Positions 15,495-63,858 of a stretch of 64,000 nt of DNA are shown one piece after another (positions within the stretch are counted from its first letter, which is position 1; every line of letters starts with the position of its first letter). This DNA comes from a virus. The translations under genes and the position numbers were made by a program. Under the pieces are notes generated by a model. The model searched no databases. It was not told where the DNA came from and was given only the letters and a program-made list of their open reading frames with translations. Where the stretch lies: the IMG/VR virus record IMGVR_UViG_3300028840_001508, positions 1 to 64,000 of that record; one strand, 5' to 3'.

Positions 15495-15503
15495 GAGGTT
15501 GAT

Positions 15504-19931: not shown

Positions 19932-20015
19932 GGGGCGTTATCCAAGCGGTCAAAGGAGAGCGGCTGTAAACCGCTTGCTTCGGCTTCGCAGGTTCAAATC
20001 CTGCACGCCCCACCA
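19932..20015 (+). tRNA. tRNA-Tyr(GTA)
   Basis: Acceptor GGGGCGT/ACGCCCC, anticodon arm AGCGG-CTGTAAA-CCGCT, long variable arm, T arm GCAGG-TTCAAAT-CCTGC, encoded CCA. Confidence 0.95.
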
Positions 20016-40380: not shown

Positions 40381-40461
40381 GCATGGATTAACTGGATCTC
40401 GTTCAACCGGTTTTGGGGCAGGGCTTTCCGTAAAAAATGTCCTGCACAATAGAATATCCAC

Positions 40462-40505
40462 AAAAACGGGTCAGATGGCGAAGTTTGCGCTGACCCGTTT
40501 TTCTT
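40462..40505 (+). terminator. Intrinsic terminator-like hairpin before the capsid gene (with competing helix)
   Basis: AAAAACGGGTCAG / CTGACCCGTTTTT perfect 13-bp stem. Confidence 0.75.
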
Positions 40506-40657
40506 TGCCATTTGACCCGTATCAAAGCAGAAATATCAGGCGCAAGCTGGAGATAGATTTGAGAGCTATCAGGCAACGGCGCTGGAGATATTAGCAAACC
40601 GACGTAAGACACGGAAATGAAAGAGAGACAACTGATTCGCAGAGGTGAAAATGATAA

Positions 40658-41971
40658 ATGGCTTTAACTAAAGAAGAAATAGCGGCGCTGACTGCTGAGA
40701 TACAGAAGAACCTGGATGCGCCGGCCAAGCCTCCCAAGGTAGACATAAAGCAGGAGCTTACGAAGCAGCTTGCTGAAGTCAAGACTCAATGGGATAAAGA
40801 AAAGGATGAAGCAATCAAGGCTGCACTGGCAAAGCAGGCAGAGGAACACGAGAAAGCCCTTGATGAACTCAAACCGCAGCCGAAGGAGAAGAAGCTGCCC
40901 ACCAAGGAAAATGACCCGACAGGCGGCTTTCCTACCATTTCTGAGTTTGGCGAAGCTGTAGCGAAGGCTGGCATGGGCAGAGGGCTTGATCCTCGTCTGA
41001 AGATGATCATGGAAAAAGCCGCAGGTGCAGGGATGGAAGAGGGCGTTGATTCTGAGGGCGGATTCCTCGTTCCAGAGGAACACGCCACCAGGCTGCTTGA
41101 GAACGGCATCGGATCGTCTGATCTCCTGTCCCGCGTCACGGAGATACCCATGCAGAGCAATAGTATCGCCATTCCCTGTGTCGTTGACACTACCAGGGCG
41201 AGCGGGCTGTTGTTCGGCGGCGTGATCGTCTACCGCAAAGCCGAAGAGGGTACTGGCACATCATCCAAGCCGAAGATGGGTGAAGTAAGGCTGACGCTGC
41301 ACAAGCTGTTTGGCCTGGCGTACTCATCTGACGAGCTGATAGAGGACAGTCCTGTAAGCATCGGTGCTATGCTTGAGCGGATGTTTACCGATGCCTTTGC
41401 CGCGAAGCTGGAGTATGAAATTATCAACGGCACGGGCACAGGCGAGCTGGAAGGCCTATTCCAGGCTAACTGCAAGATACAGCAGGACAAAGAGGAAGGG
41501 CAGACAGCCGACACTATCGAGTATGACAACATTGTGAAGATGTACTCCCGTATGCCTGGCAGGAACAGGCGACGTGCGGTGTGGCTGATCAATGACGACT
41601 GTATTCCGCAACTGTTCACGCTCAACTTGGCTGTAGGTACTGGCGGCGTTCCAGTATTTATGCCTGCCAATGGTGCATCTGCAACACCTTACGACACGCT
41701 GTTTGGCAGACCCATTATCAGTAACGAGAACTGCGCCACCATTGGTGATGCAGGCGACATCTGGTTCTGGGACCCCACCGAATACCTGCACGGCGTAAAG
41801 GCAGGAGCGGGCATCAAGTCCATGACTTCACTACATTTCAAGTTCGACACGGACGAGACGGCTTTCAGGTGGACGTTCAGGGATGATGGAATGTGCTGGT
41901 GGCCCGGTGCTTTGACGCCGCGTGTATCAAGCACCACGCTGAGTCCTGTAATCGACCTTCAAGCGAGATAG
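40658..41971 (+). CDS. Major capsid protein (HK97 fold, with delta/scaffold domain)
   Basis: Coiled-coil N-terminus, EGGFLVPEE, SDELIEDS, IINGTG, TLFGRPI, DETAFR. Confidence 0.95.
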   Translation: MALTKEEIAALTAEIQKNLDAPAKPPKVDIKQELTKQLAEVKTQWDKEKDEAIKAALAKQAEEHEKALDELKPQPKEKKLPTKENDPTGGFPTISEFGEAVAKAGMGRGLDPRLKMIMEKAAGAGMEEGVDSEGGFLVPEEHATRLLENGIGSSDLLSRVTEIPMQSNSIAIPCVVDTTRASGLLFGGVIVYRKAEEGTGTSSKPKMGEVRLTLHKLFGLAYSSDELIEDSPVSIGAMLERMFTDAFAAKLEYEIINGTGTGELEGLFQANCKIQQDKEEGQTADTIEYDNIVKMYSRMPGRNRRRAVWLINDDCIPQLFTLNLAVGTGGVPVFMPANGASATPYDTLFGRPIISNENCATIGDAGDIWFWDPTEYLHGVKAGAGIKSMTSLHFKFDTDETAFRWTFRDDGMCWWPGALTPRVSSTTLSPVIDLQAR

Positions 41972-52403: not shown

Positions 52404-53627
52404 TTGGCAGATATTGTAGATCTGGGAAAAGTATTGGAATTCGTATTCGGCAGGTTCAGCATAGCATCTGGAAACGACGTGCTGGTACTGACTAGCAGTA
52501 TAGGAGGGCCGGAGAGCATAGACGTGCCTGACGGTGACTACTCGGCAAGCGAACTAGCGACGGCACTCCAGACAGCCATGACAGCGAACGGCACGATCAG
52601 CGGTTCAACTATCACGTGGTCAGTCAGCTACAGCGACAGCACAGCAAAGTTCACCATCGACGCAGGATCAGGAAACACCGTGGCGCTAACCAATTCTGGC
52701 TCCGACGCCGCTGATACCTTTGGCTTCAACAAAGACCATACAGCGGCTCAGACTATTACCTCTGATCAGATAGTGCCTGGCGCTCCCGATAGTCTGGATA
52801 TACCCAACTTGCATGACGGGGCTGAGAAGTGGATACAGAACAGGACGGAGCGCACCTTCACCAGCACCACATATTACAAGCTCTACGATGGTGATGGCGA
52901 TACATGCCTGCTGCTTGACGATTATCCCATTACGCAGGTGCAGAGGGTAACGAAGGACGTGGAGGAAGGCATTAAGATAAAGAACACCAGCACAGATGCC
53001 AGCAACGCATACGCCGCTGTTGTGTTCGAGGATGACACGCCGTCTTACCTCAAGTTGGTTGTTGATGATGGCGATAACGTAAGTACAAGTTCGCTTTCCT
53101 TCAGCACCTACACCACGCTATCAACGCTGGTAGCTGCCTTCACCAGCAACGCCACCATATCAGGCGATGGCTGGGCGGCGGCTGTATATGACACGGACTA
53201 CAACAACTACAGTACCATGCTGTTGATGGAGAACTTCTACGAGCTTGCCAACGAGTTCGGCGGGGGTACGGCTGATTATGAATACCTCTACATCGGCGGC
53301 GAGCCGCTACAGGGCATCAAGGTATATAAAGACAGGGGAGAGATATACCACGCGGGCGGATTTACGCGTGGACATAACAACATCTACGTCAAGTACACCG
53401 CCGGATATAGTATAGCACCAGCGGATCTCCGGCTTGCCGTATGTATTCTTGTGAAGACGTGGTATGACAAGAAAGATAACGCCGCCTACGGCATAGAGGA
53501 ATACAGCTTAGGACACGTCCGGGTGCGCTATGCCAGCGGGACGCAGAGCGCCAGCGGGAATGTGGACAGGACGATCCCGCCGGAAGTGCTTAACATCGTG
53601 GATAGGTATGTGAATATAACGCTATGA
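52404..53627 (+). CDS. Head-tail adaptor (gp6/gp15-like) with inserted domains
   Basis: AEKWIQNRTERTF, LLLDDYPI, NIYVKYTAGY..PADLRLAV, IPPEVLNIVDRY. Confidence 0.75.
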   Translation: MADIVDLGKVLEFVFGRFSIASGNDVLVLTSSIGGPESIDVPDGDYSASELATALQTAMTANGTISGSTITWSVSYSDSTAKFTIDAGSGNTVALTNSGSDAADTFGFNKDHTAAQTITSDQIVPGAPDSLDIPNLHDGAEKWIQNRTERTFTSTTYYKLYDGDGDTCLLLDDYPITQVQRVTKDVEEGIKIKNTSTDASNAYAAVVFEDDTPSYLKLVVDDGDNVSTSSLSFSTYTTLSTLVAAFTSNATISGDGWAAAVYDTDYNNYSTMLLMENFYELANEFGGGTADYEYLYIGGEPLQGIKVYKDRGEIYHAGGFTRGHNNIYVKYTAGYSIAPADLRLAVCILVKTWYDKKDNAAYGIEEYSLGHVRVRYASGTQSASGNVDRTIPPEVLNIVDRYVNITL

Positions 53628-53971
53628 TCCCAGGAAAGAAAGTATCATACACACTCAAATCAGTTACAGAGACGCAGGATGCGGGCGGGTCTGCTACATT
53701 GACCATAGCCACTGTCTGCACATTCAAGGGGTCTACTATGGCTCCCTTGACGCTGTACGAGAATAGCCTGTTCGAGAAGCAGACTACGGTAGGCAGGTAC
53801 AGGATAATAGCGGACTATGACCAGTTCGGGGCAGCGTACTATGCCAGTATAGAGGAAAGCGAAGAAAATATCATCACATACAACTCTACCAACTACGACA
53901 TTATCCGCGTCAACGAGTTTGAGGGCATACCTGGACACCACTACGAGATATACGTGGAGAAGAAGCGATAA
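53624..53971 (+). CDS. Head closure / head-tail joining protein
   Basis: TETQDAGG, YDIIRV, HHYEI motifs; position. Confidence 0.7.
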   Translation: MIPGKKVSYTLKSVTETQDAGGSATLTIATVCTFKGSTMAPLTLYENSLFEKQTTVGRYRIIADYDQFGAAYYASIEESEENIITYNSTNYDIIRVNEFEGIPGHHYEIYVEKKR

Positions 53972-54342
53972 TGTGTAAATGGGGTACAGATAAGCAAGTA
54001 TTAGTTAAAATACCGACAGATCTATCATCTACAGGCGCAGTAGAATGGAAATACAAAAAGATAGATTTCTGCATAGCCGATATAGTACAGGCATTACAAC
54101 GAGCAGGAATAGATATGCGGGGAAGCTGCTGTGGACATGGTAAAACATACGGACATATTCACTGCCAGGACGGGCGTATCTTGCTATTACTTCAGGGGAA
54201 AAATGCAGATGATTACTATACCCATAGAACTCGACTATTTTTATCTCTCTTTGTCAGGCAGTTGAGTTGGGTCTCCTTGAGATATCCATATCGCTTGATA
54301 AAGGACTTACTGCATTATCTGAGGAATACAAATGACATCTGA
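53971..54342 (+). CDS. Hypothetical protein with IDxCI...SCCGHG motif (TYW3-like core)
   Basis: KIDFCIADIVQAL...GSCCGHG. Confidence 0.5.
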   Translation: MCKWGTDKQVLVKIPTDLSSTGAVEWKYKKIDFCIADIVQALQRAGIDMRGSCCGHGKTYGHIHCQDGRILLLLQGKNADDYYTHRTRLFLSLFVRQLSWVSLRYPYRLIKDLLHYLRNTNDI

Positions 54343-54964
54343 ATATATAGCACAAATAGTCAACAAATGTGACCATTATCTTCGCCCTGAAGAAGCCCGG
54401 ATACTCTACCAGACGGCAACAGACATCGGCGCAAAGAGGCTGCTGGAAATAGGTGGCGGGGCTGCGTGTTCATCGGCTATTCTGGCGACTGTAGCTATGG
54501 AGAACAACGGTTTGCTGCTTACAGTGGAGATAAGCCCGCGAAGTGACTGGAAGGCGAACCTGGCTGATTTAGGGCTGGCTGAATATGCGAAGCTGGTAGA
54601 AGCCGAATCGCCGTGGGTGAATATCGACGCCAGGATGGTGAGTCTGGACTATCTATTCGTAGACGGCAATGGGCGCATGAGGTGGGTGCTTGCTGACTAC
54701 CATTTCTTCAGCAAGTTTGTCAGGGTAGGCGGGAGGATCGCTTTCCACGACTGGTGTGGCGGGCGGCATTCACCAGATGGTGTAAAGCGGGCGGTAGGGG
54801 CGATACTTGAAACCGATGACCTGAAGGAGGTGGCGATCAGTGAGGCAGAGAAGCAGGGGCTTATCGTGTTTGAGAAGATGAGCGATAGGCTGGATTTGCC
54901 GGACGAGAACGGGGTGTATGCAGCAAGGCCGGTGAGGGCAGTAGGAAGCTGGTTGGGTAACTGA
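54332..54964 (+). CDS. Class I SAM methyltransferase (Methyltransf_24-like), paralog 1
   Basis: LEIGGG, DYLFVDG, VGGRIAFHD. Confidence 0.85.
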   Translation: MTSEYIAQIVNKCDHYLRPEEARILYQTATDIGAKRLLEIGGGAACSSAILATVAMENNGLLLTVEISPRSDWKANLADLGLAEYAKLVEAESPWVNIDARMVSLDYLFVDGNGRMRWVLADYHFFSKFVRVGGRIAFHDWCGGRHSPDGVKRAVGAILETDDLKEVAISEAEKQGLIVFEKMSDRLDLPDENGVYAARPVRAVGSWLGN

Positions 54965-54976
54965 AAAGGAGAAGCC

Positions 54977-55618
54977 ATGACAGATGCAGAAATACAGGAC
55001 ATCCGGATCCACTGTAACAAATCCATGAGGCTGGAAGAGGGGCGCATACTCTATGACACAGCAAGCGAGATAAAGGCGAAGTGCATATTGGAGATAGGCG
55101 GCGGGGCTGGTACGTCCACGTCGCTTCTGGGAACGGTAGCTAAAGAGAATGATGGCAGATTGATTACTGTGGAACCTAACCCCCGCCAGTCGTGGTTTGA
55201 TAACCTGAAACGGCTTGGCATAGAAGAGTACGTGGAGTGCGTCCAGGCAGAGTCACCGTGGCTACGTGCAGGCATAGAGCCTATCGACTATCTGTGCATC
55301 GACGGTTCTGGCATCATGCGATGGGTGTTGGTGGACTACCACTACTTCGCCCCGTTTGTGCGCGTAGGTGGGCGGATAGCGTTTCACGATTGGTGTGGTG
55401 GGGTAATGTACCCACATGGCGTCAGGCGAGCCGTAGCGGTGATAATGGAGACTGACAGCAAGATACTGAAGGAGATAGCAAGGAATGAAGATTCGCCGAG
55501 ACAGGGGATCGTCGTATTTGAGAAGGTGAGAGAATGCCCGTTCGTTGGTATGGAGCAAATGTTGAAGCAGCAACGCAAGCAGTTACAGTCGGAAACCTGC
55601 ACAGAGCAGGGGCATTGA
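54977..55618 (+). CDS. Class I SAM methyltransferase, paralog 2
   Basis: LEIGGGAG, DYLCIDG, VGGRIAFHD; tandem duplicate of the previous gene. Confidence 0.85.
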   Translation: MTDAEIQDIRIHCNKSMRLEEGRILYDTASEIKAKCILEIGGGAGTSTSLLGTVAKENDGRLITVEPNPRQSWFDNLKRLGIEEYVECVQAESPWLRAGIEPIDYLCIDGSGIMRWVLVDYHYFAPFVRVGGRIAFHDWCGGVMYPHGVRRAVAVIMETDSKILKEIARNEDSPRQGIVVFEKVRECPFVGMEQMLKQQRKQLQSETCTEQGH

Positions 55619-55914
55619 TACAGGGAACGGCAAAAGAGTTATGCCCTGTAAAGACAGGCAATCTCAAAAGCAAGATAACTTATGAGGTTGATGAGGTAGA
55701 ACTGAAGATGCGGGAAGGCAGTAATGTCATCTATGACCCCTTTGTCGAATTGGGGAGTAGCCGCAGTCCCGCACAGCCGCATCATGTACCAGCTTTAGAA
55801 GCCAACTTTCCGGCGATAAAAGAGATGTTCCATAATATCAAGCTGGACACAGCAAAGGCGCATGAAATACGCAGGGCTACACTTGGCGCATACATTGAAA
55901 GACTGGCAGGATAA
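55534..55914 (+). CDS. HK97 gp10-like neck/tail-completion protein
   Basis: AKELCPVKTGNLKSKI, FVELGS..AQP..PAL; AAGGTGA RBS; overlaps the MTase end. Confidence 0.8.
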   Translation: MPVRWYGANVEAATQAVTVGNLHRAGALIQGTAKELCPVKTGNLKSKITYEVDEVELKMREGSNVIYDPFVELGSSRSPAQPHHVPALEANFPAIKEMFHNIKLDTAKAHEIRRATLGAYIERLAG

Positions 55915-56309
55915 TGGACGCACTATTCGACGCTATACAGGCAAAATACACGGCAAACAGCACTCTGTCAAGCGCGCTATCAGGCGGCCTGCACAGGATA
56001 GAAGCCAAGCAGGATGCAAGCTACCCATTCGCCGTCTATTCCATGCCTTCTGACGTGACGGAATACACGTTTGACACCGAATGGGAGAACATGCTGATAC
56101 AGTTCAGCATCTATCACGATGGACGTTCTGATGCTACTGTCCAGGACTGCTACACCAAGCTGAAGACAGTGTATGATTTGTGTACGCTATCCATCAGCGG
56201 TTATACGCAGGTTGTCATGGCGAGAGAATGGCAGAATTTAATACGGGAAGAAGATGTCTGGCAGTATAGCGTTAGATACAGGGTGAGGTTCTACAAGGCG
56301 AGGTCATGA
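55914..56309 (+). CDS. Tail terminator (DUF3168/gp17-like)
   Basis: A.YPFAVY, IQFSIY, position after the gp10-like gene. Confidence 0.75.
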   Translation: MDALFDAIQAKYTANSTLSSALSGGLHRIEAKQDASYPFAVYSMPSDVTEYTFDTEWENMLIQFSIYHDGRSDATVQDCYTKLKTVYDLCTLSISGYTQVVMAREWQNLIREEDVWQYSVRYRVRFYKARS

Positions 56310-56412
56310 TAGAGACATACTTTCTATATTTTGTTTTCCTATTAGCTGCTTTTGTCTGTGGCATGAGGGTACAGCGATTTTTTGATAAGAGGAAATGAAA
56401 AGGAGAGAAAGC

Positions 56413-56742
56413 ATGATAAACTTGCTGGATGAAACGGTAGATGCGCTGATGGAGCATGGCAAACATCCCTCTGAAGTTCTATGGGTAGGGAATAGCGAAT
56501 GGCATACAACGTGGGATGCCTTTACTAAAGTAGCGAACAGGCGGTATGATGACGGACTCGGTAGGGAAGAAGTCAACGGAGATCTAATGATAGTCGGACA
56601 GGACTGGTGGCTAGAGCGCAAAATCTATGATGGTCAAGAGGAATGGGCATTCAAAACGCAGCCCAAACTTCAGGGCAAGAAATCTACAGGGCCGCCTTTA
56701 GTCAATTGGCTTATATGGAAGGAGAGCAGGGACAGCGAATGA
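56413..56742 (+). CDS. Conserved-looking phage hypothetical protein
   Basis: NLLDET..YDDG.G..DL.IVG.DWWLER..YDG.E.W; AAAGGAG RBS. Confidence 0.6.
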   Translation: MINLLDETVDALMEHGKHPSEVLWVGNSEWHTTWDAFTKVANRRYDDGLGREEVNGDLMIVGQDWWLERKIYDGQEEWAFKTQPKLQGKKSTGPPLVNWLIWKESRDSE

Positions 56743-57092
56743 AAACAGTTCTCTGCATAGGACGCTGGCAGCCGCTTCACAAGGGACATATCAAGCTTCT
56801 GACCGACGTGATAAGGGAGGGGAATTTTCTCGTAGTCGGGATCAGGGACACGCGGGCGGGAGATCCCCGTGAGAATCCATACACAGTCAAGCAACGTAGG
56901 CGGATGATAAAGAACGCACTGGGCAAGTACAAAGACAGGTACGCTATAGCTGTTATCCCCGACTACTGGTGTGACCTGGAAGTGAGGATAGGGCGCAAGG
57001 TCGGGTATAAGGTACAGCGGTATGACGTGGATGTTGAGGATATATCAGGTACGAAGACGCGGGAAGTGTTGAGAAGAAAGGGGAAGCTGTGA
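56739..57092 (+). CDS. Minimal HIGH-motif nucleotidyltransferase (cytidylyltransferase-like)
   Basis: IGRWQPLHKGH, NPYT..QR..MI, ISGTKTR. Confidence 0.8.
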   Translation: MKTVLCIGRWQPLHKGHIKLLTDVIREGNFLVVGIRDTRAGDPRENPYTVKQRRRMIKNALGKYKDRYAIAVIPDYWCDLEVRIGRKVGYKVQRYDVDVEDISGTKTREVLRRKGKL

Positions 57093-57388
57093 AAATCGAG
57101 ACGAAGGACGGATTGGCGCTATCTGATAATATAATAGAATCACGACGCAGACTGGCATATATGCTAATTACTTTCGATGCCCTGTGTGAATTGTTCAAGG
57201 ATAGAGAAATACACGTAAAGGTCGAAAGTAGTTTGCCTGCTGATGCCAAGTTAATTCATATCGCTTGGGATACGGATCGGGCGATGGTTAGGCTGTATTT
57301 TGAGAGTAAAGATTTCCCTGTAGTTGAGCCGTATGAGATTGTAACTCATCACATAAAGCCATTATTCCACTATATAGATATTGACTAG
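57089..57388 (+). CDS. Hypothetical protein
   Basis: LPADAK...FES.DFP.V motif; coupled start. Confidence 0.55.
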   Translation: MKIETKDGLALSDNIIESRRRLAYMLITFDALCELFKDREIHVKVESSLPADAKLIHIAWDTDRAMVRLYFESKDFPVVEPYEIVTHHIKPLFHYIDID

Positions 57389-57412
57389 AGACACTTATAG
57401 AAAGGGGAAGTT

Positions 57413-57682
57413 ATGAAGCTTGAGGAATGTAAACAGCAACTAGGCAAAATAATGAGGGTTCTTTCTCTACGCCCCAATCCTTGCTTGCAGTGTCCACTGG
57501 CTATCAAGGATGCTGATGGAGGTGTCTATACTCCTATTGTCGGGGATGGTATGTGTGGAATATGTAACAGAGGTACATGGGAGATAGGTGATCGCAGTAT
57601 AGAGGTAGAGGGCGAAACTATACCGATGTGTCGTGAATGCGAAGTAATGCTCAAAGAATTGATAGTGAAAGGTGGGTTATGA
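57413..57682 (+). CDS. Zinc-binding hypothetical protein
   Basis: CLQC, CGIC, CREC. Confidence 0.5.
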   Translation: MKLEECKQQLGKIMRVLSLRPNPCLQCPLAIKDADGGVYTPIVGDGMCGICNRGTWEIGDRSIEVEGETIPMCRECEVMLKELIVKGGL

Positions 57683-58110
57683 TAATCTGGCTAACAGCTA
57701 ACAGTGGCGCAGGCAAGACCACCATCGGCAAGCAACTGGCATACCGTAACAACGGTATATTGCTTGACGGTGATGACATGCGCGCAAGCATCTCACTCGG
57801 AGCGGGCTTCAGTAAGGAAGAGCGGGAGGAACACAACCTGCGAGTAGCGAGGCTGGCGAAGGTCATGGAAGCGCAGGGCAAGCTTGTCATAGTGTCGGTG
57901 ATAGCACCATTCAAGGACACGCGATCGAAGATAGATAAGATGATATGTCCCGTGTGGATATATCTCGTATCAGCCATCCGAAGCCAACCGACGAAGGAGC
58001 GACCGTATCAAATACCCGGCAACGCATCACTGGTAATAGATACAGATATGATGAAGCCGCTTGATGCGGTGTGTATGATAGAGTCGCAGATATTGAGGAA
58101 GTATTGGTAA
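57679..58110 (+). CDS. cysC: Adenylyl-sulfate (APS) kinase, compact form
   Basis: IWLTANSGAGKTT, LLDGDDMR, GFSKEEREEHNLRVA, VSVIAP. Confidence 0.85.
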   Translation: MIIWLTANSGAGKTTIGKQLAYRNNGILLDGDDMRASISLGAGFSKEEREEHNLRVARLAKVMEAQGKLVIVSVIAPFKDTRSKIDKMICPVWIYLVSAIRSQPTKERPYQIPGNASLVIDTDMMKPLDAVCMIESQILRKYW

Positions 58111-58817
58111 TGCCACACGCATTCTTTATAACAGGTACAGGCAGGTCAGGAACAACCACTCTTGCAGCCTTGCTCAATACCGACCCACAAGCTGCCGTCT
58201 ACCATGAACCACACGGCAACGAGGGCCAGGCATGTATACAGGCATACTGCTCAGAGATGGCAGCTACGGCGTATATTGAGAAGCGCAGGGAGTGGATAGC
58301 CACGCATCTGAACACTGGCCTGAACTACGGCGAAGTCAACGGCTATCTGCGCTTTCATGCCGATGCACTCAGGCAAGCGGGCTACCCCGTCTACCAGATA
58401 ATCCGTGACGGCAGGGACGTGGTACGGTCGGGCTATTCCCGTAATACATATAAGTTCGGACACATGACCTGTATGATAGAGCCGAAACCTGGCGATCTGT
58501 GTTTCTACGACTGGCTGTCTATGACACGGTTTGAGAGAATATGCTGGCACTGGCAGATGGTGAATGAGTATCTGGCAGACAGGGTGGAGGATGTGCTGAA
58601 GTTTGAGGATATGATCGGCAACTGGGAGGCGGTCTATTGGTTCACACGGCAGATCGGGGTAGACGTAGATAAAGAGACGTGGAAAAAGAAGCCCGTCAGG
58701 AATGCCACTATCAAACATAGCTTGCCTGTGTATGACAAGTGGGACATGCATCTGAAGGATAGCTTCTGGCGGATATGTGGCGACACTATGGCGAAGTTTG
58801 GGTATGAAAGGAGATAG
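58110..58817 (+). CDS. Sulfotransferase
   Basis: FFITGTGRSGTT (5'-PSB loop), IIRDGRDVVRS (3'-PB), KFEDM. Confidence 0.85.
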   Translation: MPHAFFITGTGRSGTTTLAALLNTDPQAAVYHEPHGNEGQACIQAYCSEMAATAYIEKRREWIATHLNTGLNYGEVNGYLRFHADALRQAGYPVYQIIRDGRDVVRSGYSRNTYKFGHMTCMIEPKPGDLCFYDWLSMTRFERICWHWQMVNEYLADRVEDVLKFEDMIGNWEAVYWFTRQIGVDVDKETWKKKPVRNATIKHSLPVYDKWDMHLKDSFWRICGDTMAKFGYERR

Positions 58818-58819
58818 GG

Positions 58820-59281
58820 ATGGAAGATATAGAACGATATAGTAACAGTTCACAACGCAACTTGGAAGATTACCCCATAGACTTTGATGGTAAACCCTAT
58901 CAGAGCAATATAGAGGTGCTACTAAACTACGATGACTTAGCACAACTACTCCATCTAGCAGAGGAATATAGAATTCTAAGGATAGCTATAGAGCCAAAGG
59001 TTGATCAGATCGCTATTGTCATAGAAGGCCCTGATCTGTATCAAAGAACAGCAGGTAGCCAAAGAGTGCGAGATCATGAGGCTATAGCGAGACTACTATT
59101 AGGCAGAAGCCGTACATTCCGGCCAGACACAGATGTTCGCCATCGAGTAGTAGATCAGCGATGGCTCTGGCTTCTGGATTTTCTGGAAGACCCGCTAATC
59201 AAAGCTAACTGGAAGCGATTTGTTGAAATGAAGAAAGGAGATAGGGATGTCCCTGACACTCATAATCGGCGCATCATTTAG
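58820..59281 (+). CDS. Hypothetical protein
   Basis: 153 aa ORF in operon. Confidence 0.5.
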   Translation: MEDIERYSNSSQRNLEDYPIDFDGKPYQSNIEVLLNYDDLAQLLHLAEEYRILRIAIEPKVDQIAIVIEGPDLYQRTAGSQRVRDHEAIARLLLGRSRTFRPDTDVRHRVVDQRWLWLLDFLEDPLIKANWKRFVEMKKGDRDVPDTHNRRII

Positions 59282-59855
59282 CGGCACATCCATGATTGCC
59301 CACGTATGCCATGCTAATGGCGCATGGATGGGTGAGATACTGACAGAGCCGCCAGAGGAATACAGGGAGTCACAACACTATGATTTGTATGAGAACATCA
59401 CGTTCCGTAGCTTATGCCGCAATGCACTAAACATCGACACCGAGATAGACAAGAAATCACTAGACAAGCTATTCAAGGCGTTCTTCGTGTCACTACCGAC
59501 TGACAGTGAATGTGTGGTTCTGAAGTACCCCAAGGCATTCTATCTGCTGCCTGCGCTGCGTGATAAGTTGCAGGTAGAGCCGAAGCTAGTCAATGTCATA
59601 CGCAATCCCTTCAGGCGGGCATTTAGCTACGTTCAGCGGACGCAGGTATTCAATGTCCCGTATGCGCTGATGGAGTGGGATCAGGCATACATGCAGGCGG
59701 CAGAAGCCACAGACGGGCTGGATATGTATACGATTCTGTATGAGCGGTTCCTGAAAGAGCCAGAGATGGAAGCAAAACAACTGTTTGACTTCATTGGCTT
59801 GAAGCCTGAGAAGGTGGACGTGAGCATGGTAGATACGGGGAAGAGGCACTTTTGA
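59247..59855 (+). CDS. Sulfotransferase (second, divergent)
   Basis: LIIGASFSGTS, VLKYP, VIRNP..RAFS, YERFLKEP..LFDFIG. Confidence 0.8.
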   Translation: MSLTLIIGASFSGTSMIAHVCHANGAWMGEILTEPPEEYRESQHYDLYENITFRSLCRNALNIDTEIDKKSLDKLFKAFFVSLPTDSECVVLKYPKAFYLLPALRDKLQVEPKLVNVIRNPFRRAFSYVQRTQVFNVPYALMEWDQAYMQAAEATDGLDMYTILYERFLKEPEMEAKQLFDFIGLKPEKVDVSMVDTGKRHF

Positions 59856-60113
59856 AAAGGAGAAGTCATGCTGATACGAAAGAAGAGACTAGATGAGCTA
59901 GAGAAGCGGGTAGGTGTATTGGAGAACACCATAGATGAACTCTGGAAACGCATGGATAGAGACAGATTGGAATGCAACCTACCGCATTTGAGTAAAGAAA
60001 GCGTAGAAGGAATAGTAAGACAGCATATAATACCAGTTATAAGAGACATGGAAAACAAGAAGTAGTATAACAGTCCCGTTTATAAGAACGGCAAGCGTAT
60101 AGATAACGTAGAT

Positions 60114-60188
60114 TGGGCAGTCGCCAAACGGTAAGGCATCGGCCTGTTAAGCCGACAAATGCAGGTTCGATTCCTGCCTGCCCAGCCA
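60114..60188 (+). tRNA. tRNA-Asn(GTT)
   Basis: Acceptor TGGGCAG/CTGCCCA, anticodon arm TCGGC-CTGTTAA-GCCGA, T arm GCAGG-TTCGATT-CCTGC, G discriminator, CCA. Confidence 0.92.
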
Positions 60189-60204
60189 GATAAAGGAGAA
60201 CAAT

Positions 60205-60564
60205 ATGTCAAGCGTAGATGTGGAAATCAAACCAGGTTGCGAAGAACTATTCGACCGAGTTGCTAATATGCTAAACGCTGCAAGTGCAAAAGCCAAGCGA
60301 ATCCAATCTCTACCGCCGAAGAATTTGCAACAGATAGAGGTAGACACTTTTTATATCGAGAAAGTAGCCGAATTTGAAAATGGAATGCCTTTTAGCCCTG
60401 TTATCGGTTATCACTGGGAATGCAGTATTCCTGGCGTTCTAATAAAGGATGTAGCTGTATGGGATCATAAGGTATATGTTGAACTAAGTGAGGACTCCCT
60501 ACGCCCTGTCATTTCTGAATTTTCTAAGGGGAAAATAGGCAGTGGTGACTGGATTTTCGTATAG
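60205..60564 (+). CDS. Hypothetical protein
   Basis: AAAGGAG RBS. Confidence 0.55.
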   Translation: MSSVDVEIKPGCEELFDRVANMLNAASAKAKRIQSLPPKNLQQIEVDTFYIEKVAEFENGMPFSPVIGYHWECSIPGVLIKDVAVWDHKVYVELSEDSLRPVISEFSKGKIGSGDWIFV

Positions 60565-60594
60565 ATAGCATCTAACACAACTTCATATCAACAC

Positions 60595-60634
60595 AAAAAC
60601 GGGTCAGGAGAAGCAGACTGCACTCGTTTTTTTT
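60595..60634 (+). terminator. Intrinsic terminator-like hairpin, second copy of the 40462 element
   Basis: AAAAACGGGTCAG pairs with CTG(C)ACTCGTTTTT, followed by a T-run. Confidence 0.65.
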
Positions 60635-60648
60635 GTTTCCCTGACCGC

Positions 60649-62808
60649 TTGAAAGGGCATACAGTGGATATTCTCGTAGTAATGACAGAAGGCATAGGCA
60701 ACATGGTCATGATGACGCCTGCGCTACAGGCAATGAAGCAGGCGCGTCCAGAGTGCAATATCACCGTCCTGTGCAAAGAGCCAGCGGCAAGCGTGATCAG
60801 GGGATGGGATGTGATAGAGCGCGCCATATCAAGGCTAGGACAACGCAGGTACGATATAGGCTTTCTCTCCATCTGGTCTGGCAAGTACAAGACAGAATAC
60901 CGTGACAGGCTGGGAAGCAAGTGCAATGAGGTAATAGAGATAGACTACGAGGATATAGAAAAGCACGAGGCAGAATATCACCTGGACATGGCATGCTATC
61001 TGGAATACGAGGGGGATCTACCCGACACTTTCTGCATGTCTGAGGATGTCCATATCAAGCATGATAAGCCCCTGGCGGCGTTGTCCGACACCTGCCTGCC
61101 GCTTCAAGCCTGGCAACGTAAGCGATGGCCGTATTACCCCGCTCTGGCAAAGATGCTGATAGCGAAGGGCTTTGACGTATGTTTGATAGGCGGGAAGTCC
61201 GAGGCAGAAGCATTCAATCCAGGCGACTGGCCGGATGGGGTAATCAACTGCCTGGGGAAGTACACCATCCCCCAGACAGCGGGCTTGCTGGGGCAGTGCA
61301 ACGTCTTTGTAGGGAACGACTCAGGGCCAGCACACATTGCCGCCGCTATGGGATGCAATACATTTGTATTGTTCGGCCCTACGCTGGTAAAGAAGAACAA
61401 GCAACTGGGCAGGAATGTGGTATTACTGACACGACAACTGGAATGTTCACCGTGTCAATATACCGCCCGCTGGCAATACTGCCATCAGTTTGACTGTATG
61501 CTTGCCATATCGCCTACGGACGTAATGCAGGCGATAGATGCAAATACGCATGAGGGCGGTGCTACGGCGGAGCGGCTAAAGCTTTCTGTCTGCATGATAG
61601 TGAAGAATGAAGAGGCCATGCTTGCGGGGTGTCTTGATAGTGTTAAGGACATAGCGGATGAGATTATCGTAGTAGATACGGGCAGCACTGACAGGACAAT
61701 GGAGATCGCTCAGGGATATGAAAAGGTCAAGCTATTTGAGCATCCCTGGGAGGACTCGTTCAGCGTCGCACGTAACCAGGCCATCAGTCACGCAACAGGC
61801 GACTGGATATTGCAGATAGACGCTGATGAGAAGCTGGAAAAAGATGATATACCCGTACTCATGACCACCATCCAGAAGGCGCAGAGAGCACAGATAGGTG
61901 CAGTCAGATGTCCCCATTGCAGTAGAAAAATTGTAGACGAAAAATGGGTTCATGCCTTCAAGCTGGAGTTCCTGAACTACCTGGCAGATGGCGTTTCCTG
62001 GCACGCTTCGGAGAGACTGTTCAGGAACGGACATATAGAGTTCAAATGCCGCGTCCACAATCAGCCACATTACGACGGCATAGTAGCCCCGTCCATCCCC
62101 GTGAAGCTGCATCACTATGGCTATAACCTTGATAAAGCCACCATGCAGAAGAAGTACGAGCGCACAGAGCGGCTTCTGAAAATCTCCATCGAAGAAACAC
62201 CCATAGGAGATAAGCAACTGGGCTTCTTCTACCAGAACCTCTTGCGCAACTTCCGGGCGCAGTATAAATGGGATGAGCTGGTAGAGACGGCAGATAGGAT
62301 GTTTGCCATGATGGAAGCAGGAGAGATCACGCCATCCAGCCAGACCGAGCAGTTGTCGATGATAGACTACGTGTTCGGACTGGTGAAGCAGGAGAAGCCG
62401 ATGGAGGCACTCATGGCTGTTGACTTGCTTGTAACGAAGCACCCGCTCATGATAGACGGCTGGTATCACAAGGCGCTGATACATTCGGCACTGGGACATC
62501 ACGGCGAGGCTATAGCTGCATACGACTCATATTTGAAGTACAAACGGCAACTGGAAGCCATGCCGCAGAAGCCCGTGCTGATCCTAGATACCTGGGGCGG
62601 GGAAGCTACGGCATATAACAATATGGGCTGCGCGTACTTCTACGTCAACGACCCCGGCAATGCACTTTTACACTTCGGGATAGCGGCGAAGATGGACCCG
62701 GATAATGAAGGATTCAAGAATAACGTAAACCAGGTACTAGGTGCGATACTGGAGAACTTCAATAAACAACAGCGAAAGGAGCCAACGACTGAGGAGTTGA
62801 AATACTAA
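60649..62808 (+). CDS. GT9 (heptosyltransferase-like) + GT2 + TPR glycosyltransferase fusion
   Basis: GIGNMVM, KRWP, FVGNDSGPAHIAAA (GT9); LSVCMIVKNEE, VVDTGSTD, QIDADE (GT2); TPR helices; start may be GTG at 60664. Confidence 0.9.
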   Translation: MKGHTVDILVVMTEGIGNMVMMTPALQAMKQARPECNITVLCKEPAASVIRGWDVIERAISRLGQRRYDIGFLSIWSGKYKTEYRDRLGSKCNEVIEIDYEDIEKHEAEYHLDMACYLEYEGDLPDTFCMSEDVHIKHDKPLAALSDTCLPLQAWQRKRWPYYPALAKMLIAKGFDVCLIGGKSEAEAFNPGDWPDGVINCLGKYTIPQTAGLLGQCNVFVGNDSGPAHIAAAMGCNTFVLFGPTLVKKNKQLGRNVVLLTRQLECSPCQYTARWQYCHQFDCMLAISPTDVMQAIDANTHEGGATAERLKLSVCMIVKNEEAMLAGCLDSVKDIADEIIVVDTGSTDRTMEIAQGYEKVKLFEHPWEDSFSVARNQAISHATGDWILQIDADEKLEKDDIPVLMTTIQKAQRAQIGAVRCPHCSRKIVDEKWVHAFKLEFLNYLADGVSWHASERLFRNGHIEFKCRVHNQPHYDGIVAPSIPVKLHHYGYNLDKATMQKKYERTERLLKISIEETPIGDKQLGFFYQNLLRNFRAQYKWDELVETADRMFAMMEAGEITPSSQTEQLSMIDYVFGLVKQEKPMEALMAVDLLVTKHPLMIDGWYHKALIHSALGHHGEAIAAYDSYLKYKRQLEAMPQKPVLILDTWGGEATAYNNMGCAYFYVNDPGNALLHFGIAAKMDPDNEGFKNNVNQVLGAILENFNKQQRKEPTTEELKY

Positions 62809-63170
62809 TGGCTCACGTATCAGGCAAGACTGGAGGCGTTACCGCCACTAACTTTGCCACAGGAGCATATAACTGGTCTCTTGACTGGACTGCTGACGCT
62901 TTGGAGACGACCGACTATGGCAGCTCAGGGCAGAGGGAATATATTGCAGGACTCACAGGCGGCAGCGGAACGTTTGTCGTCCGTGGCGACGCGGCAAGCA
63001 ATACCGCATCAGTAGGAACTACAGTGGCGTTGACGCTTACCATCTCGTCAGGTAAGGCTTATACCATGACAGCCCTGATCACAGGCAAAGGCGAAACAGT
63101 GCCCGTGGACGGGCTTCACGAAACCACAGTCAGCTTCGTGGCAACTGGTTCTATAACAAAGCCGGCATAA
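62808..63170 (+). CDS. Tail tube protein (short)
   Basis: WSLD.TADALETT..REYIAGL, SFVATG. Confidence 0.75.
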   Translation: MAHVSGKTGGVTATNFATGAYNWSLDWTADALETTDYGSSGQREYIAGLTGGSGTFVVRGDAASNTASVGTTVALTLTISSGKAYTMTALITGKGETVPVDGLHETTVSFVATGSITKPA

Positions 63171-63183
63171 GGGGTGATCGCTA

Positions 63184-63858
63184 ATGGCACACGTCGCAGG
63201 AATGACAGGAGCGGTATACGCCCGTAAGTTTTACACGAAGGCGGCGACTATCTCCTTTGCCGATACAAACCCGGACACGATCCTTGACAGCGCAGCGGGC
63301 TTTAGCGGTGCTGAGGCTGGCGACTATGTGACTGTCTCAGGCGCAGCGCAGGCGGGTAATAACGATACGTTCCTCATAGGGACAGCATTACCCGCCACGC
63401 TGACGCTGGATGCAGGGGAAACGCTGACTGCTGAAGCGGCGGGGGCGACTGTAACCGTCTCCCAAGCACTGCCCTATGAGCAGCTTCTGGGCTTCAACGG
63501 CATAGACCTGAATCTGGAAGCCGTGGAGCTTGAGACGACGGACTTTACCGACGTAGGCGCATCAACACCCGGCAGGCATTATATAGCAGGTCTGACCAGC
63601 TTCAATGCCACCTGTACACACTGGTGGGCATCCACTGACCTGCTGGGGTCATGGACTGGCGCAAAGAAGTACGTCGCCTTTTTCGTGAAGTATAACAGTG
63701 CGCCGGCAACAACCACCTGCTATTACTATCATGGCTACGTGATTACGACAGGGCTGGATACCAGCGCACCTGTTGACACAGTAGTAGCACAACCGTTGAC
63801 GCTTCAAGGAACGGGAACCATAACATCGGCAACGGCGACAACCGCCTGGCCGACATAA
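63184..63858 (+). CDS. Second tail-tube-like protein with inserted beta domain
   Basis: MAHVAG.TG, LETTDF..YIAGL, TLQGTG; about 80 aa insertion. Confidence 0.7.
   Translation: MAHVAGMTGAVYARKFYTKAATISFADTNPDTILDSAAGFSGAEAGDYVTVSGAAQAGNNDTFLIGTALPATLTLDAGETLTAEAAGATVTVSQALPYEQLLGFNGIDLNLEAVELETTDFTDVGASTPGRHYIAGLTSFNATCTHWWASTDLLGSWTGAKKYVAFFVKYNSAPATTTCYYYHGYVITTGLDTSAPVDTVVAQPLTLQGTGTITSATATTAWPT

Follow-up and report, generated by a model that had tools for sequence, protein, structure and literature searches.

Virion glycosylation is known in mycobacteriophages, where an O-methyltransferase and a glycosyltransferase (GT) are present (PMC11600133). For giant viruses, virion-glycosylation clusters that include SAT/APS-kinase and sulfotransferase genes, and with them a sulfation step, have been proposed (PMC10117803). 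On the bacterial side, GmaR is an enzyme that glycosylates flagellin (cited in PMC9638930).

The phage considered here is an uncultured tailed phage of ~97 kb, represented by a complete 96,961-bp IMG/VR record with terminal repeats, of which the window (the whole 64,000-nt stretch that was analysed) is the first part. Between the adaptor and the tail-tube genes it carries two methyltransferases (MT1 and MT2), a HIGH-motif nucleotidyltransferase, a short APS-kinase-like protein, two sulfotransferases (ST1 and ST2), a tRNA-Asn and a GT9-GT2-TPR fusion (Table 1). The original prediction had read this set as a self-contained pathway for sulfated, methylated glycans on the virion or host envelope that was not known to be described, a claim of novelty that was too strong in view of the mycobacteriophage and giant-virus precedents. 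The pathway reading stands insofar as the genes make up a coherent glycosylation, methylation and sulfation kit in a late structural module, while the acceptor is left as a proposal. With slightly better than even confidence, we regard the locus as a late cytoplasmic protein-glycan tailoring kit with a virion acceptor, placed in the neck/tail module of a virulent, siphovirus-like phage.

Table 1. Features of the adaptor-to-tube interval, with two further genes of the phage
Feature	Position	Strand	Basis
Head-tail adaptor with inserted domains, upstream edge of block	52404..53627	+	phrog_442, E 7e-23
Two small ORFs, candidate head-closure/neck	53624-53971, 53971-54342	+	position, overlapping stops/starts; zero family matches
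MT1, class-I SAM methyltransferase, O-methyltransferase-like	54332..54964	+	PF13578 Methyltransf_24, 42 bits, E 1.7e-10
MT2, tandem paralog of MT1	54977..55618	+	PF13578 Methyltransf_24, 55 bits, E 1.4e-14
Tail completion/Neck1 protein	55534..55914	+	phrog_5, E 2e-9
Tail terminator	55914..56309	+	phrog_176, E 2e-8
Small phage protein	56413..56742	+	phrog_3972, E 1e-18; resembles unnamed Atlas clusters, most of them viral
HIGH-motif nucleotidyltransferase, 117 aa	56739..57092	+	PF01467; motifs GRWQPLHKGH, ISGTKTR
Small ORF; Cys-rich, zinc-ribbon-like ORF	57089-57388, 57413-57682	+	ORFs; zero confident family matches
Short APS-kinase-like P-loop kinase, 143 aa	most likely 57679..58110	+	PF01583, 73 bits
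ST1, PAPS sulfotransferase	58110..58817	+	PF13469, 26.5 bits, just under cut-off
153-aa ORF	58820..59281	+	ORF, 35-nt overlap with ST2 start; zero family matches, Atlas model poor
ST2, core sulfotransferase of cassette	59247..59855	+	PF13469, 34.8 bits
65-aa ORF	59868..60065	+	ORF only
tRNA-Asn (GTT)	60114..60188	+	ARAGORN
119-aa ORF	60205..60564	+	zero family matches
Terminator-like hairpin and T-run	about 60592..60646	+	sequence
GT9-GT2-TPR fusion	60664(GTG)/60649..62808	+	Pfam
Small tail-tube paralog, 120 aa	62808..63170	+	weak phrog_1407 match
Large tail-tube paralog, 224 aa	63184..63858	+	weak phrog_1407 match, alignment with relatives
NAPRTase	14628-15494
GT8-GT9 fusion, outside the window	72254-73855 (genome)

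Layout and conservation of the block

A genome search of the complete phage returned no integrase or resolvase, so that the phage looks virulent. All the enzyme genes named in the original prediction lie where it had placed them, on the + strand, and their interleaving with neck and tail genes is borne out by the phrog matches of the adaptor, Neck1, terminator and tube proteins. Overlapping stops and starts (ATGA, TAATG, GTGA), claimed for several genes, occur at 9 of the 9 junctions checked, and the cassette enzymes are tightly coupled to the neck and tail genes. Six small ORFs of no known function are interspersed among the cassette genes. The tRNA-Asn and the terminator-like element set the accessory genes apart from the GT-plus-tube unit, and thus the block is not necessarily a single operon. 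The hairpin, whose region shares an element of roughly 30 nt with the capsid-gene leader (alignment with 40440-40660), probably marks the start of a GT-plus-tube transcription unit.

Related contigs are few, with identities of 37-55%. The full core, in which ST2, a methyltransferase and the GT fusion lie directly 5' of the tube genes, is present in one distant relative, L176 (37-50% identity), in the order terminator, ST2, methyltransferase, small Cys-rich ORF, GT fusion, tube, tube. L176 also has an adaptor homolog at the equivalent position and, directly 5' of its ST2 homolog, a tail terminator 37% identical to that of the phage; no sequence similarity was detected between the two Cys-rich ORFs. 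ST2 adjoins the GT fusion in L176 and on two further contig fragments, L178 and L186, the fusion adjoins tube genes in L175/L088 and L178 and is directly upstream of them in four lineages, and the small tail-tube paralog is kept 3' of the fusion in L175, L176 and L178. Homologs of ST2 and of the GT fusion have longest contigs that agree exactly in length, at 18,974 bp and again at 20,576 bp, as would be expected if they share contigs.

The glycosyltransferase fusion, the methyltransferases and the sulfotransferases

The predicted fusion was recovered by Pfam, with a GT9-like GT-B domain (~aa 1-295), a GmaR/SunS-like GT2 domain (~300-530) and a helical/TPR region (~560-700). A search of 5.8e9 proteins yielded only 3 homologs of full length, and the DAD and GNDSGPxH motifs are invariant. 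In P0073 and P0161, GT9, GT2 and methyltransferase domains are joined in one protein. The PDB profile matches of the fusion are GmaR (3e-42), SunS (2e-34), a ThuS-like enzyme (8e-26) and heptosyltransferase II (3e-11); the GT2 part most closely resembles GmaR, which is a flagellin O-GlcNAc transferase, and SunS, a peptide glycosyltransferase. Flagellar genes are found at 44 of the 79 nearest cellular loci of the GT2 part and at 0 of 80 control loci, represented by ST1-family loci, and where GT-relative loci bear flagellin it lies ~1-5 kb from the GT in 39 of 43. For either GT domain, the closest relatives in cellular genomes are also placed in flagellar gene clusters. Collectively, these data support, at the level of sequence and gene context, the predicted placement of the GT2-TPR part in the protein- and peptide-glycosylating branch (GmaR, SunS) rather than among polysaccharide synthases.

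The two O-methyltransferase-like paralogs are likewise upheld, as both exceed the PF13578 cut-off of 26.3 bits and share 55% identity; MT1 is 44% identical to the single methyltransferase of L176, and MT2 weakly matches O-methyltransferase structures in the PDB (e.g. 6g7d, 6jcl and 7cvu). The two sulfotransferases proved to be of the PF13469 type and unrelated, i.e. non-paralogous. ST2 belongs to a small family, for which 1.84e9 proteins yielded 10 representatives at E<=1e-30, and the best folds for its model (pLDDT 93.9) are PAPS sulfotransferases, with TPST1/2 on top (TM 0.56-0.60). Its nearest cellular relative, P0188, has the domain order TPR-GT-TPR-ST2 and is flanked by FlgI, FlgJ, FlgK, flagellin, FliW and PseB/PseC-like genes, i.e. 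a flagellin-glycosylation island. ST1 has 65 homologs of 35-40% identity, and its GRSGT and RDGRDVVRS (PAPS) motifs are invariant in 21 of its homologs; the best solved matches of the family profile are protein-tyrosine sulfotransferases (E 2e-9). In 31 cellular loci the neighbours of this family are GT2, GT1/GT4, methyltransferases and Wzx flippases, and L176 holds neither an ST1 homolog nor the PAPS genes. Judged from these contexts, the family is of the polysaccharide-cluster type and ST1 is accessory to the phage.

Candidate genes for PAPS supply

The nucleotidyltransferase carries the predicted HIGH motif and is most similar to NadM-type NMN adenylyltransferases (NMNATs), its best named matches. 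Its whole length aligns at 41% identity (E 2e-21) with the N-terminal domain of P0349, in which a nucleotidyltransferase is fused to an APS kinase, and such fusions make the phage protein a candidate minimal ATP sulfurylase acting as the partner of the kinase. The APS-kinase assignment of the latter held in part: its 24 best PDB matches, down to E 7e-16, all come from APS kinases or from the APS-kinase-like domain in PAPS synthases and ATP sulfurylases, and the P-loop, DGDxxR and GFSxEER..HNLR motifs are retained, but it scores below NCBIfam cut-offs and lacks most of the lid, which is ~26 residues shorter. It is presumed to catalyse the PAPS-forming step. Among the best 120 of its 453 homologs, roughly 45% are fused to PF01467, and the single chain of ~250 aa occurs in hundreds of phage and metagenome proteins, widespread across phages; the model of a whole fusion aligns to Aquifex Sat-APS kinase with equal domain order (Z 17). 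Since single-chain fusions are common, the two phage genes are best read as the split form of this protein, a compact ATP-sulfurylase/APS-kinase pair that would act as a PAPS synthase.

In 33 other viral loci with the kinase module, 16 APS kinases and 6 sulfotransferases are among the neighbours, along with several GT, methyltransferase, capsid and sheath genes. The phage has two sulfotransferases and zero matches to the Pfam families of PAPS reductase (PF01507) and canonical ATP sulfurylase (PF01747), and the kinase is therefore best read as a donor-supply gene, as had been proposed for this cysC-like gene.

Possible acceptors of the modification

The acceptor may be a virion protein, host flagellin or the host envelope. 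As the GT relatives act on flagellin, the kit could modify a host protein during infection, above all flagellin (or a pilin or S-layer protein), leaving the virion unmodified and altering motility or surface recognition, or blocking superinfection by other phages. The flagellar clusters around the relatives of both GT domains and ST2, together with GmaR as best solved match, agree with this, but we find it unlikely, given that the phage looks virulent and has no detectable flagellin-like gene, that several divergent lineages keep the GT transcriptionally linked to tube genes, and that late expression leaves little time to export newly modified flagellin. Remodelling of host envelope polysaccharide (LPS, capsule, EPS) with sulfated, methylated sugars, which would resemble serotype conversion or stop progeny trapping on cell debris, is suggested by the ST1-family loci and by GT9, classically the LPS heptosyltransferase family. 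It appears quite improbable, given that ST1 and the PAPS genes are accessory, that the GT2 domain groups with protein and peptide GTs, that no flippase, polymerase or membrane protein is seen among the cassette genes (nor a hydrophobic segment in any cassette enzyme) and that the genome is without integrase.

Since the solved structures nearest to ST1 and ST2 are protein-tyrosine sulfotransferases, these two enzymes might instead directly modify Tyr or Ser/Thr side chains in proteins of the virion or the host, glycosylation and sulfation being parallel rather than sequential. We hold this to be just as improbable: the resemblance is confined to the PAPS-binding core (18-20% identity), the ST1 context is polysaccharide, P0188 joins an ST2-type domain to a glycosyltransferase, and the conserved tube tail has no Tyr. 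Least probable of all is the absence of a single pathway, with the nucleotidyltransferase as an NMN/NaMN adenylyltransferase of NAD salvage, the kinase as a sulfur-assimilation auxiliary gene and the rest as unrelated morons in a permissive site. The NMNAT matches, the NAPRTase gene and the tRNA and small ORFs, which mark an insertion hot spot, would fit; however, the nucleotidyltransferase lacks ~50 NMNAT residues, including the C-terminal subdomain, it is fused to the kinase in many proteins and adjacent to it in most viral loci, sulfotransferases and GTs recur beside the module while NAD genes are outside its 25 commonest neighbour families in the 33 viral loci, and the ST2-methyltransferase-GT core is conserved as a block.

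Because enzymes of the flagellin-glycosylation type sit with methyl- and sulfate-transferring enzymes between neck and tube genes, we propose that the kit, which is related to the enzymes of bacterial flagellin glycosylation and probably descends from them, is likely to coat a virion protein with methylated, sulfated sugars. Gene adjacency and a Ser/Thr-rich tail are all that singles out the tail tube as the most likely acceptor. In particular, the GT2 domain, anchored to its target through the TPR region, would put a first sugar on Ser/Thr (or Cys), most likely of the large tail-tube paralog just downstream, either in its 85-aa inserted domain or in its C-terminal tail, which is rich in Ser/Thr and ends in T(A/P)WP. 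The fused GT9-like domain would then lengthen the glycan from host nucleotide sugars, and the GT8-GT9 fusion further along the tail module may extend it more. MT1 and MT2 would O-methylate the glycan, and ST2, of the conserved core, and the accessory, polysaccharide-type ST1 would sulfate it, all of these being assigned to their enzyme classes by sequence and fold. PAPS would be drawn from the kinase and the nucleotidyltransferase, two proteins observed as fusions elsewhere, with the nucleotidyltransferase as the presumed sulfurylase. The pathway would be self-contained only if the nucleotidyltransferase is an ATP sulfurylase; the genome has zero matches to the epimerase/dehydratase family (PF01370), the sole donor-sugar family searched, and sugar-nucleotide donors are thus presumably host-supplied. 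To our knowledge, a methylated, sulfated sugar coat on a virion protein has had no experimental demonstration in any phage; in this one, the proposed steps would leave the tail covered along its length by a methylated glycan of anionic character.

Layout and conservation of the block

The phage genome is a single contig of 96,961 bp with a 144-bp repeat at both ends, the window being its bases 1-64000, and the genome search returned an IMG/VR entry with direct terminal repeats and 100% completeness. It encodes an HK97-type capsid protein and a tape-measure protein of 1317 aa, no sheath gene was noticed among its annotated ORFs, and neither a tyrosine integrase nor a serine recombinase was found in the genome. 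Thus, the phage is most likely virulent and siphovirus-like. Megablast of the block against 50,697 deposited phage records gave no match and no close relative.

The original prediction had listed methyltransferases, a HIGH nucleotidyltransferase, an APS kinase, sulfotransferases and a glycosyltransferase (GT) fusion at 54332-62808, and this inventory was borne out in both content and position, with families or phrogs assigned on the + strand and stop and start codons overlapping at all nine junctions checked. The enzymes are indeed interleaved with neck and tail genes, but a tRNA and a terminator-like element interrupt the block. Hydrophobic segments are absent from all cassette enzymes, and no function for the uncharacterized ORFs of 153 aa and 109 aa emerged from Atlas searches.

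Features of the block and the upstream capsid gene, with the family or method supporting each
Feature	Position	Strand	Family or basis
HK97-type capsid gene	40658-41971		
Adaptor	52404-53627	+	phrog_442
Two small ORFs	53624-54342	+	no family
Methyltransferase MT1	54332-54964	+	PF13578
Methyltransferase MT2	54977-55618	+	PF13578; 55% identity to MT1
Neck1	55534-55914	+	phrog_5
Tail terminator	55914-56309	+	phrog_176
Conserved phage ORF	56413-56742	+	phrog_3972
117-aa HIGH nucleotidyltransferase (NT)	56739-57092	+	PF01467
Two small ORFs	57089-57682	+	no confident family
143-aa APS-kinase-like protein	57679-58110	+	PF01583
Sulfotransferase ST1	58110-58817	+	PF13469, borderline
153-aa ORF	58820-59281	+	no family
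Sulfotransferase ST2	59247-59855	+	PF13469
65-aa ORF	59868-60065	+	ORF only
tRNA-Asn (GTT), mid accessory block	60114-60188	+	ARAGORN
119-aa ORF	60205-60564	+	no family
Terminator-like hairpin	about 60592-60646	+	sequence
GT9-GT2-TPR fusion	60664-62808	+	Pfam
Two tail-tube paralogs	62808-63170, 63184-63858	+	weak phrog_1407

The hairpin, together with a preceding shared element ATATC..CACAAAAACGGGTCAG, is found both before the capsid gene (40459-40520) and before the unit formed by the GT fusion and the tube genes (60592-60646), and probably represents a late regulatory or terminator element present in repeated copies. Elsewhere in the window, a second tRNA, tRNA-Tyr, lies at 19932-20015, and genes for a nicotinate phosphoribosyltransferase (NAPRTase), a phosphatase of PP2C type and an RNA ligase containing a PHA02142 OB-fold domain are present within 14628-16241 and 20027-21007. 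Beyond the window (contig L197, the same genome), a MerR/HTH-type regulator occupies an unusual site between the tube-chaperone region and the tape-measure gene (L197:1225-2253 = genome 65225-66253), and an N6/N4 DNA methylase with a large insertion is followed by a papain-family cysteine protease (L197:13918-16589 = genome 77918-80589). Glycosylation clusters of giant viruses also hold papain-like genes (PMC10117803), a correspondence that may be a coincidence.

Full-length homologs of the GT9-GT2-TPR protein are only three in 5.8 billion proteins, at 37-40% identity, and their DNA was obtained by alignment-based scans; when IMG/VR was queried with the single sequence of either ST2 or the GT fusion, nothing was returned. 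One relative is a 37-kb contig, SDBU01001232.1 (L176), in which adaptor, Neck1, tail terminator, ST2, one methyltransferase, a Cys-rich ORF, the GT fusion, the small tube and the large tube genes follow each other in tight packing. Its ST2 homolog is 49.5% identical to that of the phage and its GT fusion 38%, while its single methyltransferase is 44-46% identical to both MT1 and MT2; no similarity is detectable between its Cys-rich ORF and that of the phage. Shorter related contigs agree with this order: one (L178) runs from ST2 through the GT fusion to the tube, another (L186) has ST2 and then the GT fusion, and two (L175, L088) begin at the GT fusion and continue through the tube genes to the tape-measure gene. 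The longest contigs of two ST2 homologs (P0187, P0189) and of two GT-fusion homologs (P0067, P0068) are equal in size (18,974 and 20,576 bp), which by size alone is consistent with shared contigs. The adaptor search gave one relative, whose contig ends before the cassette, and a scan with the tube alignment gave no new relatives. Thus, the conserved unit consists of ST2, a methyltransferase and the GT fusion between the tail terminator and the tail tube; L176 shows it whole, the shorter contigs in part. What the phage adds to this unit is a second methyltransferase, by duplication, together with the nucleotidyltransferase, kinase, ST1, tRNA and small ORFs.

The glycosyltransferase fusion and the sulfotransferases

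In the GT fusion, the GT9 domain is recognized by PF01075 (74.9 bits against a cut-off of 22, model positions 115-237) with an invariant GNDSGPxHIAAA, and the N-terminal part matches heptosyltransferase II (1psw, E 3e-11). The GT2 domain has invariant VDTGSTD and DAD motifs and is followed by TPR_1, TPR_2 and TPR_8 matches at residues 578-686, the combination of a DxD GT-A domain with a helical or TPR domain found in enzymes of the GmaR and SunS type. Indeed, a profile of four GT fusions searched against the PDB matched the glycosyltransferase domain of Listeria GmaR (E 3e-42), the SPbeta peptide S-glycosyltransferase SunS (E 2e-34, positions 300-592, reaching into the helical domain) and a ThuS-like enzyme (E 8e-26). 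GmaR is described as a bifunctional flagellin O-GlcNAc transferase in the title of Shen et al. 2006, as given in the reference list of PMC9638930.

The 79 genome loci with the closest cellular relatives of either GT domain carry flagellar genes in 44 cases, with a flagellin-family gene in 43 of these 44; in 39 of the 43 the flagellin lies about 1-5 kb from the GT. As an internal control, the 80 loci retrieved through the ST1 family contain no flagellar genes. With relatives beside flagellin genes in 43/79 loci, the acceptor of the GT2 domain may well be a protein. No cellular locus has both GT domains within 10 kb; derivation of the GT9-GT2 fusion from neighbouring genes of a cellular genome was therefore rejected, and the three-part fusion appears confined to a small group of related contigs, of which those inspected are phage-like. 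Two metagenomic proteins of about 1100 aa (P0073, P0161) combine GT9, GT2 and a class-I methyltransferase in one chain, a further fusion that links glycosyl transfer and methylation in this GT lineage. A second bifunctional glycosyltransferase, of GT8 (PF01501) and GT9 (PF01075), is encoded in the tail module outside the window (L197:8254-9855 = genome 72254-73855), downstream of the genes for the tape measure and distal tail. The next gene encodes an RCC1-repeat beta-propeller protein (genome 73858-74967), probably a fibre or receptor-binding protein. The presence of the GT8-GT9 enzyme suggests a multi-sugar glycan or a second target.

Both predicted sulfotransferases are there and both have the 5'-phosphosulfate-binding loop, the 3'-phosphate-binding R..S and the fold of PAPS sulfotransferases, but they are unrelated to each other by comparison, and a paralogous origin was thus rejected. 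Their likeness to tyrosine sulfotransferases is limited to the PAPS-binding core, and single-sequence searches of the PDB with either returned nothing. In ST1, GRSGT and RDGRDVVRS are invariant and the family profile matches tyrosylprotein sulfotransferase (TPST) with E 2e-9; its 65 homologs, at 35-40% identity, are spread over many bacterial and archaeal phyla. As these homologs have GT2, GT1/GT4, methyltransferase and Wzx-type flippase neighbours, ST1 is assigned to a sulfotransferase family of polysaccharide clusters; six viral loci with ST1 relatives have no synteny with the phage.

ST2 (GAxxSGTS and RNPxxRxxS motifs; PF13469 at 34.8 bits against a cut-off of 27) belongs to a very small family, with 10 cluster representatives at E<=1e-30 in 1.84 billion proteins. 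The best folds for its model (pLDDT 93.9) are PAPS sulfotransferases, tyrosylprotein sulfotransferases first, with a TM of about 0.6, and the top 23 Foldseek rows are all PAPS-binding sulfotransferase-fold proteins at probability 1.0. One family member, P0188, is a 766-aa TPR-GT-TPR-sulfotransferase fusion on a bacterial MAG contig (CAXXFV010000023.1, L192:9998-12301), where it lies among genes for FlgI, FlgJ, FlgK, a flagellin-family protein, FliW, TPR proteins, another TPR-GT and PseB/PseC-like sugar enzymes. This locus is a flagellin-glycosylation island, and the fusion suggests that an uncultured bacterium may make sulfated flagellin glycans, which to our knowledge are known only from archaeal flagellins.

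Nucleotidyltransferase, kinase and the supply of PAPS

The kinase predicted as CysC matches PF01583 (73.2 bits, cut-off 21.1) but is a shortened form. It aligns to the APS kinases 2yvu and 7yq0 and keeps the P-loop SGAGKTT, LDGDDMR (DGDxxR), GAGFSKEEREEHNLRVARLA (GFSxEER..HNLR) and SVIAPF, an ISP-like strand. Between its core and the PYxxPxNP segment it lacks about 26 residues of the lid, so that the protein is not a full-length APS kinase, and its score against TIGR00455 (76.5 bits) is below the cut-off of 138.7; the short lid is common to the whole family of 453 homologs. Among the best 120 of these, about 45% are proteins of about 250 aa in which PF01467 precedes PF01583, and the phage nucleotidyltransferase is 41% identical over its full length to the N-terminal domain of one such fusion, P0349 (E 2e-21). 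Viruses commonly carry the module, of which IMG/VR holds 337 relatives. Within two genes on each side at 33 viral loci, its neighbours include 16 APS kinases (the split form), 6 sulfotransferases, glycosyltransferases of the GT2, GT1 and PF13524 families, methyltransferases, and capsid and sheath genes, in line with the predicted co-occurrence of cysC-type modules with sulfotransferases, GTs and structural genes. When a fused protein was modelled, its alignment with the Aquifex ATP sulfurylase-APS kinase extended over the two domains (Z 17, 215 residues), a score largely driven by the kinase domain, which also dominated the match lists of the structure search; model residues 77-108 have low confidence.

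Canonical ATP sulfurylase (PF01747) has no match anywhere in the phage genome, nor does the PAPS-reductase family (PF01507) in the phage, and for this reason the pair can be read as a compact PAPS synthase, in which the first step would fall to a minimal ATP sulfurylase of a new kind. The nucleotidyltransferase lies outside the ATP sulfurylase family, with which it has in common only the HxGH motif general to the HIGH superfamily, which is why it is said here that it may work like Sat, a proposal based on the fusion with APS kinase and not on family membership. The rival reading is that of a truncated NadM-type NMN adenylyltransferase. By sequence this is what the protein most resembles, its GRWQPLHKGH and ISGTKTR motifs aligning to MJ0541 (1f9a, E 6e-9), and the phage also has an NAD-salvage gene, the PncB-like NAPRTase within 14628-16241. 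The protein has 117 aa compared with about 170 aa for a NadM domain, the alignment covers only the first 70 residues and a short stretch of the C-terminal part, and it scores 46.8 bits against PRK01153, below the cut-off of 127. If instead the pair is a PAPS synthase, the fused family of about 250 aa becomes a lead as a candidate minimal PAPS synthase. Many viral cysC genes, which literature searches show are usually classed as auxiliary genes of sulfur assimilation, would then supply sulfotransferases with their donor for virion sulfation, and this would change how viral contributions to sulfur cycling are counted.

The candidate acceptor and comparison with known systems

The large tube paralog corresponds to the small one extended by an N-proximal domain insertion of 85 residues and by a Ser/Thr-rich C-terminal tail of 8-11 residues that ends in T(A/P)WP, and the tandem paralogs, the inserted domain and the tail are kept in two related contigs (L175, L176). 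Several other virion proteins of the phage are also Ser/Thr-rich. The tail tube is the best candidate acceptor, favoured because the cellular GT relatives adjoin the gene of their presumed substrate, flagellin, and by analogy with mycobacteriophages. Glycosylation of virion proteins with methylation and sulfation is judged slightly more probable than its absence, and the tube as the specific acceptor is held with less confidence. The original prediction of a pathway for sulfated, methylated virion glycans is largely supported as a hypothesis, in which both the acceptor and the chemistry are putative. Lysogenic conversion is unlikely, since integrase and resolvase were not found, and the context gives no support to DNA hypermodification, as the enzymes match families acting on proteins or glycans and sit in a structural module. 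A joint reading, in which environmental siphophages coat the tail tube with sulfated O-methylated O-glycans through flagellar-related, probably captured, machinery, and draw the sulfate donor from an unrecognised HIGH ATP sulfurylase of about 110 aa and a lid-less APS kinase forming a two-enzyme PAPS synthase widespread in phages, is tentative and would more probably fail than hold in all its parts.

We know of no phage for which sulfated, methylated glycans on the virion have been demonstrated, and they would represent a new virion chemistry. Such a chemistry would alter surface charge, adsorption to particles and mucus, the access of proteases and antibodies and possibly host recognition. 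With flagellin-glycosylation enzymes as the nearest cellular relatives, an evolutionary link would be traceable and an origin there is suggested, so that the decoration system of one helical polymer, the flagellum, would have been reused on another, the tail tube, with the tube paralog bearing the Ser/Thr-rich tail as a concrete acceptor to consider. The TPR-GT-sulfotransferase fusion of the bacterial flagellar island is a lead in its own right, hinting at bacterial sulfated flagellin glycans.

The pathway had been presented as not known to be described. Indeed, the literature searches turned up no phage with sulfotransferase genes reported in association with structural genes, but virion glycosylation with an O-methyltransferase is known (PMC11600133) and sulfation has been proposed for giant viruses (PMC10117803). 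Virion glycosylation is reported for the mycobacteriophages Che8, Corndog/cluster O and Myrna (Freeman et al. 2023, as cited in PMC11600133, PMC12363180 and PMC12619734), with glycans at the C-termini of capsid and tail-tube subunits according to the citation of that work in PMC12619734; in cluster O phages an O-methyltransferase lies upstream of three GTs modifying capsid and tube (PMC11600133). Phage-encoded GTs and an enzyme of O-methyltransferase type are common to both systems, and the present phage has its genes next to structural ones and a tube with a Ser/Thr-rich tail; this likeness is functional and organisational only. In a tblastn search of the GT fusion against the 50,697 phage records, no mycobacteriophage was among the organism groups or the 25 matches listed. 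Unlike in mycobacteriophages, the GT is a GT9-GT2-TPR protein of probable flagellin-glycosylation ancestry, two sulfotransferases and a PAPS-supply pair are added, and the host is probably not an actinobacterium.

The grouping of an APS-kinase-containing enzyme, a sulfotransferase and GTs is shared with Megavirinae, in which Moumouvirus australiensis (ma457-ma468) and Cotonvirus japonicus have SAT/APS kinase and sulfotransferase genes inside fibril-glycosylation clusters with GTs, Tupanvirus clusters include sugar methyltransferases, and sulfation of virion glycans is proposed but unvalidated (PMC10117803). These giant eukaryotic viruses encode sugar-nucleotide pathways of their own and a canonical, bifunctional SAT/APS kinase (about 640 aa), whereas the phage has a split mini nucleotidyltransferase and short kinase, with the enzymes interleaved with neck and tail genes; no epimerase/dehydratase gene (PF01370, the sole sugar-nucleotide family searched) was found in its genome.

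The order of a HIGH-superfamily nucleotidyltransferase followed by APS kinase is, in the fused relatives, that of the PAPS synthases (Aquifex aeolicus 2gks, human PAPSS1/2), and the phage kinase likewise retains the APS-binding motifs. In contrast to these enzymes, the predicted pair has a NadM-like nucleotidyltransferase of about 110 aa without PF01747 and a kinase without most of its lid, and in the phage the two genes are separated by two small ORFs. As in GmaR and SunS/ThuS, the GT2 domain has a DxD motif and an attached TPR or helical substrate-binding region; the TPR is N-terminal in GmaR and C-terminal in the phage fusion, where a GT9-like domain is added N-terminally and the context is a phage tail module. 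Collectively, what is particular to this phage is that its GT and ST2 are both related to flagellin-glycosylation enzymes, together with a GT9-GT2-TPR fusion seen on this small group of contigs only and its conserved site directly before the tail-tube genes.
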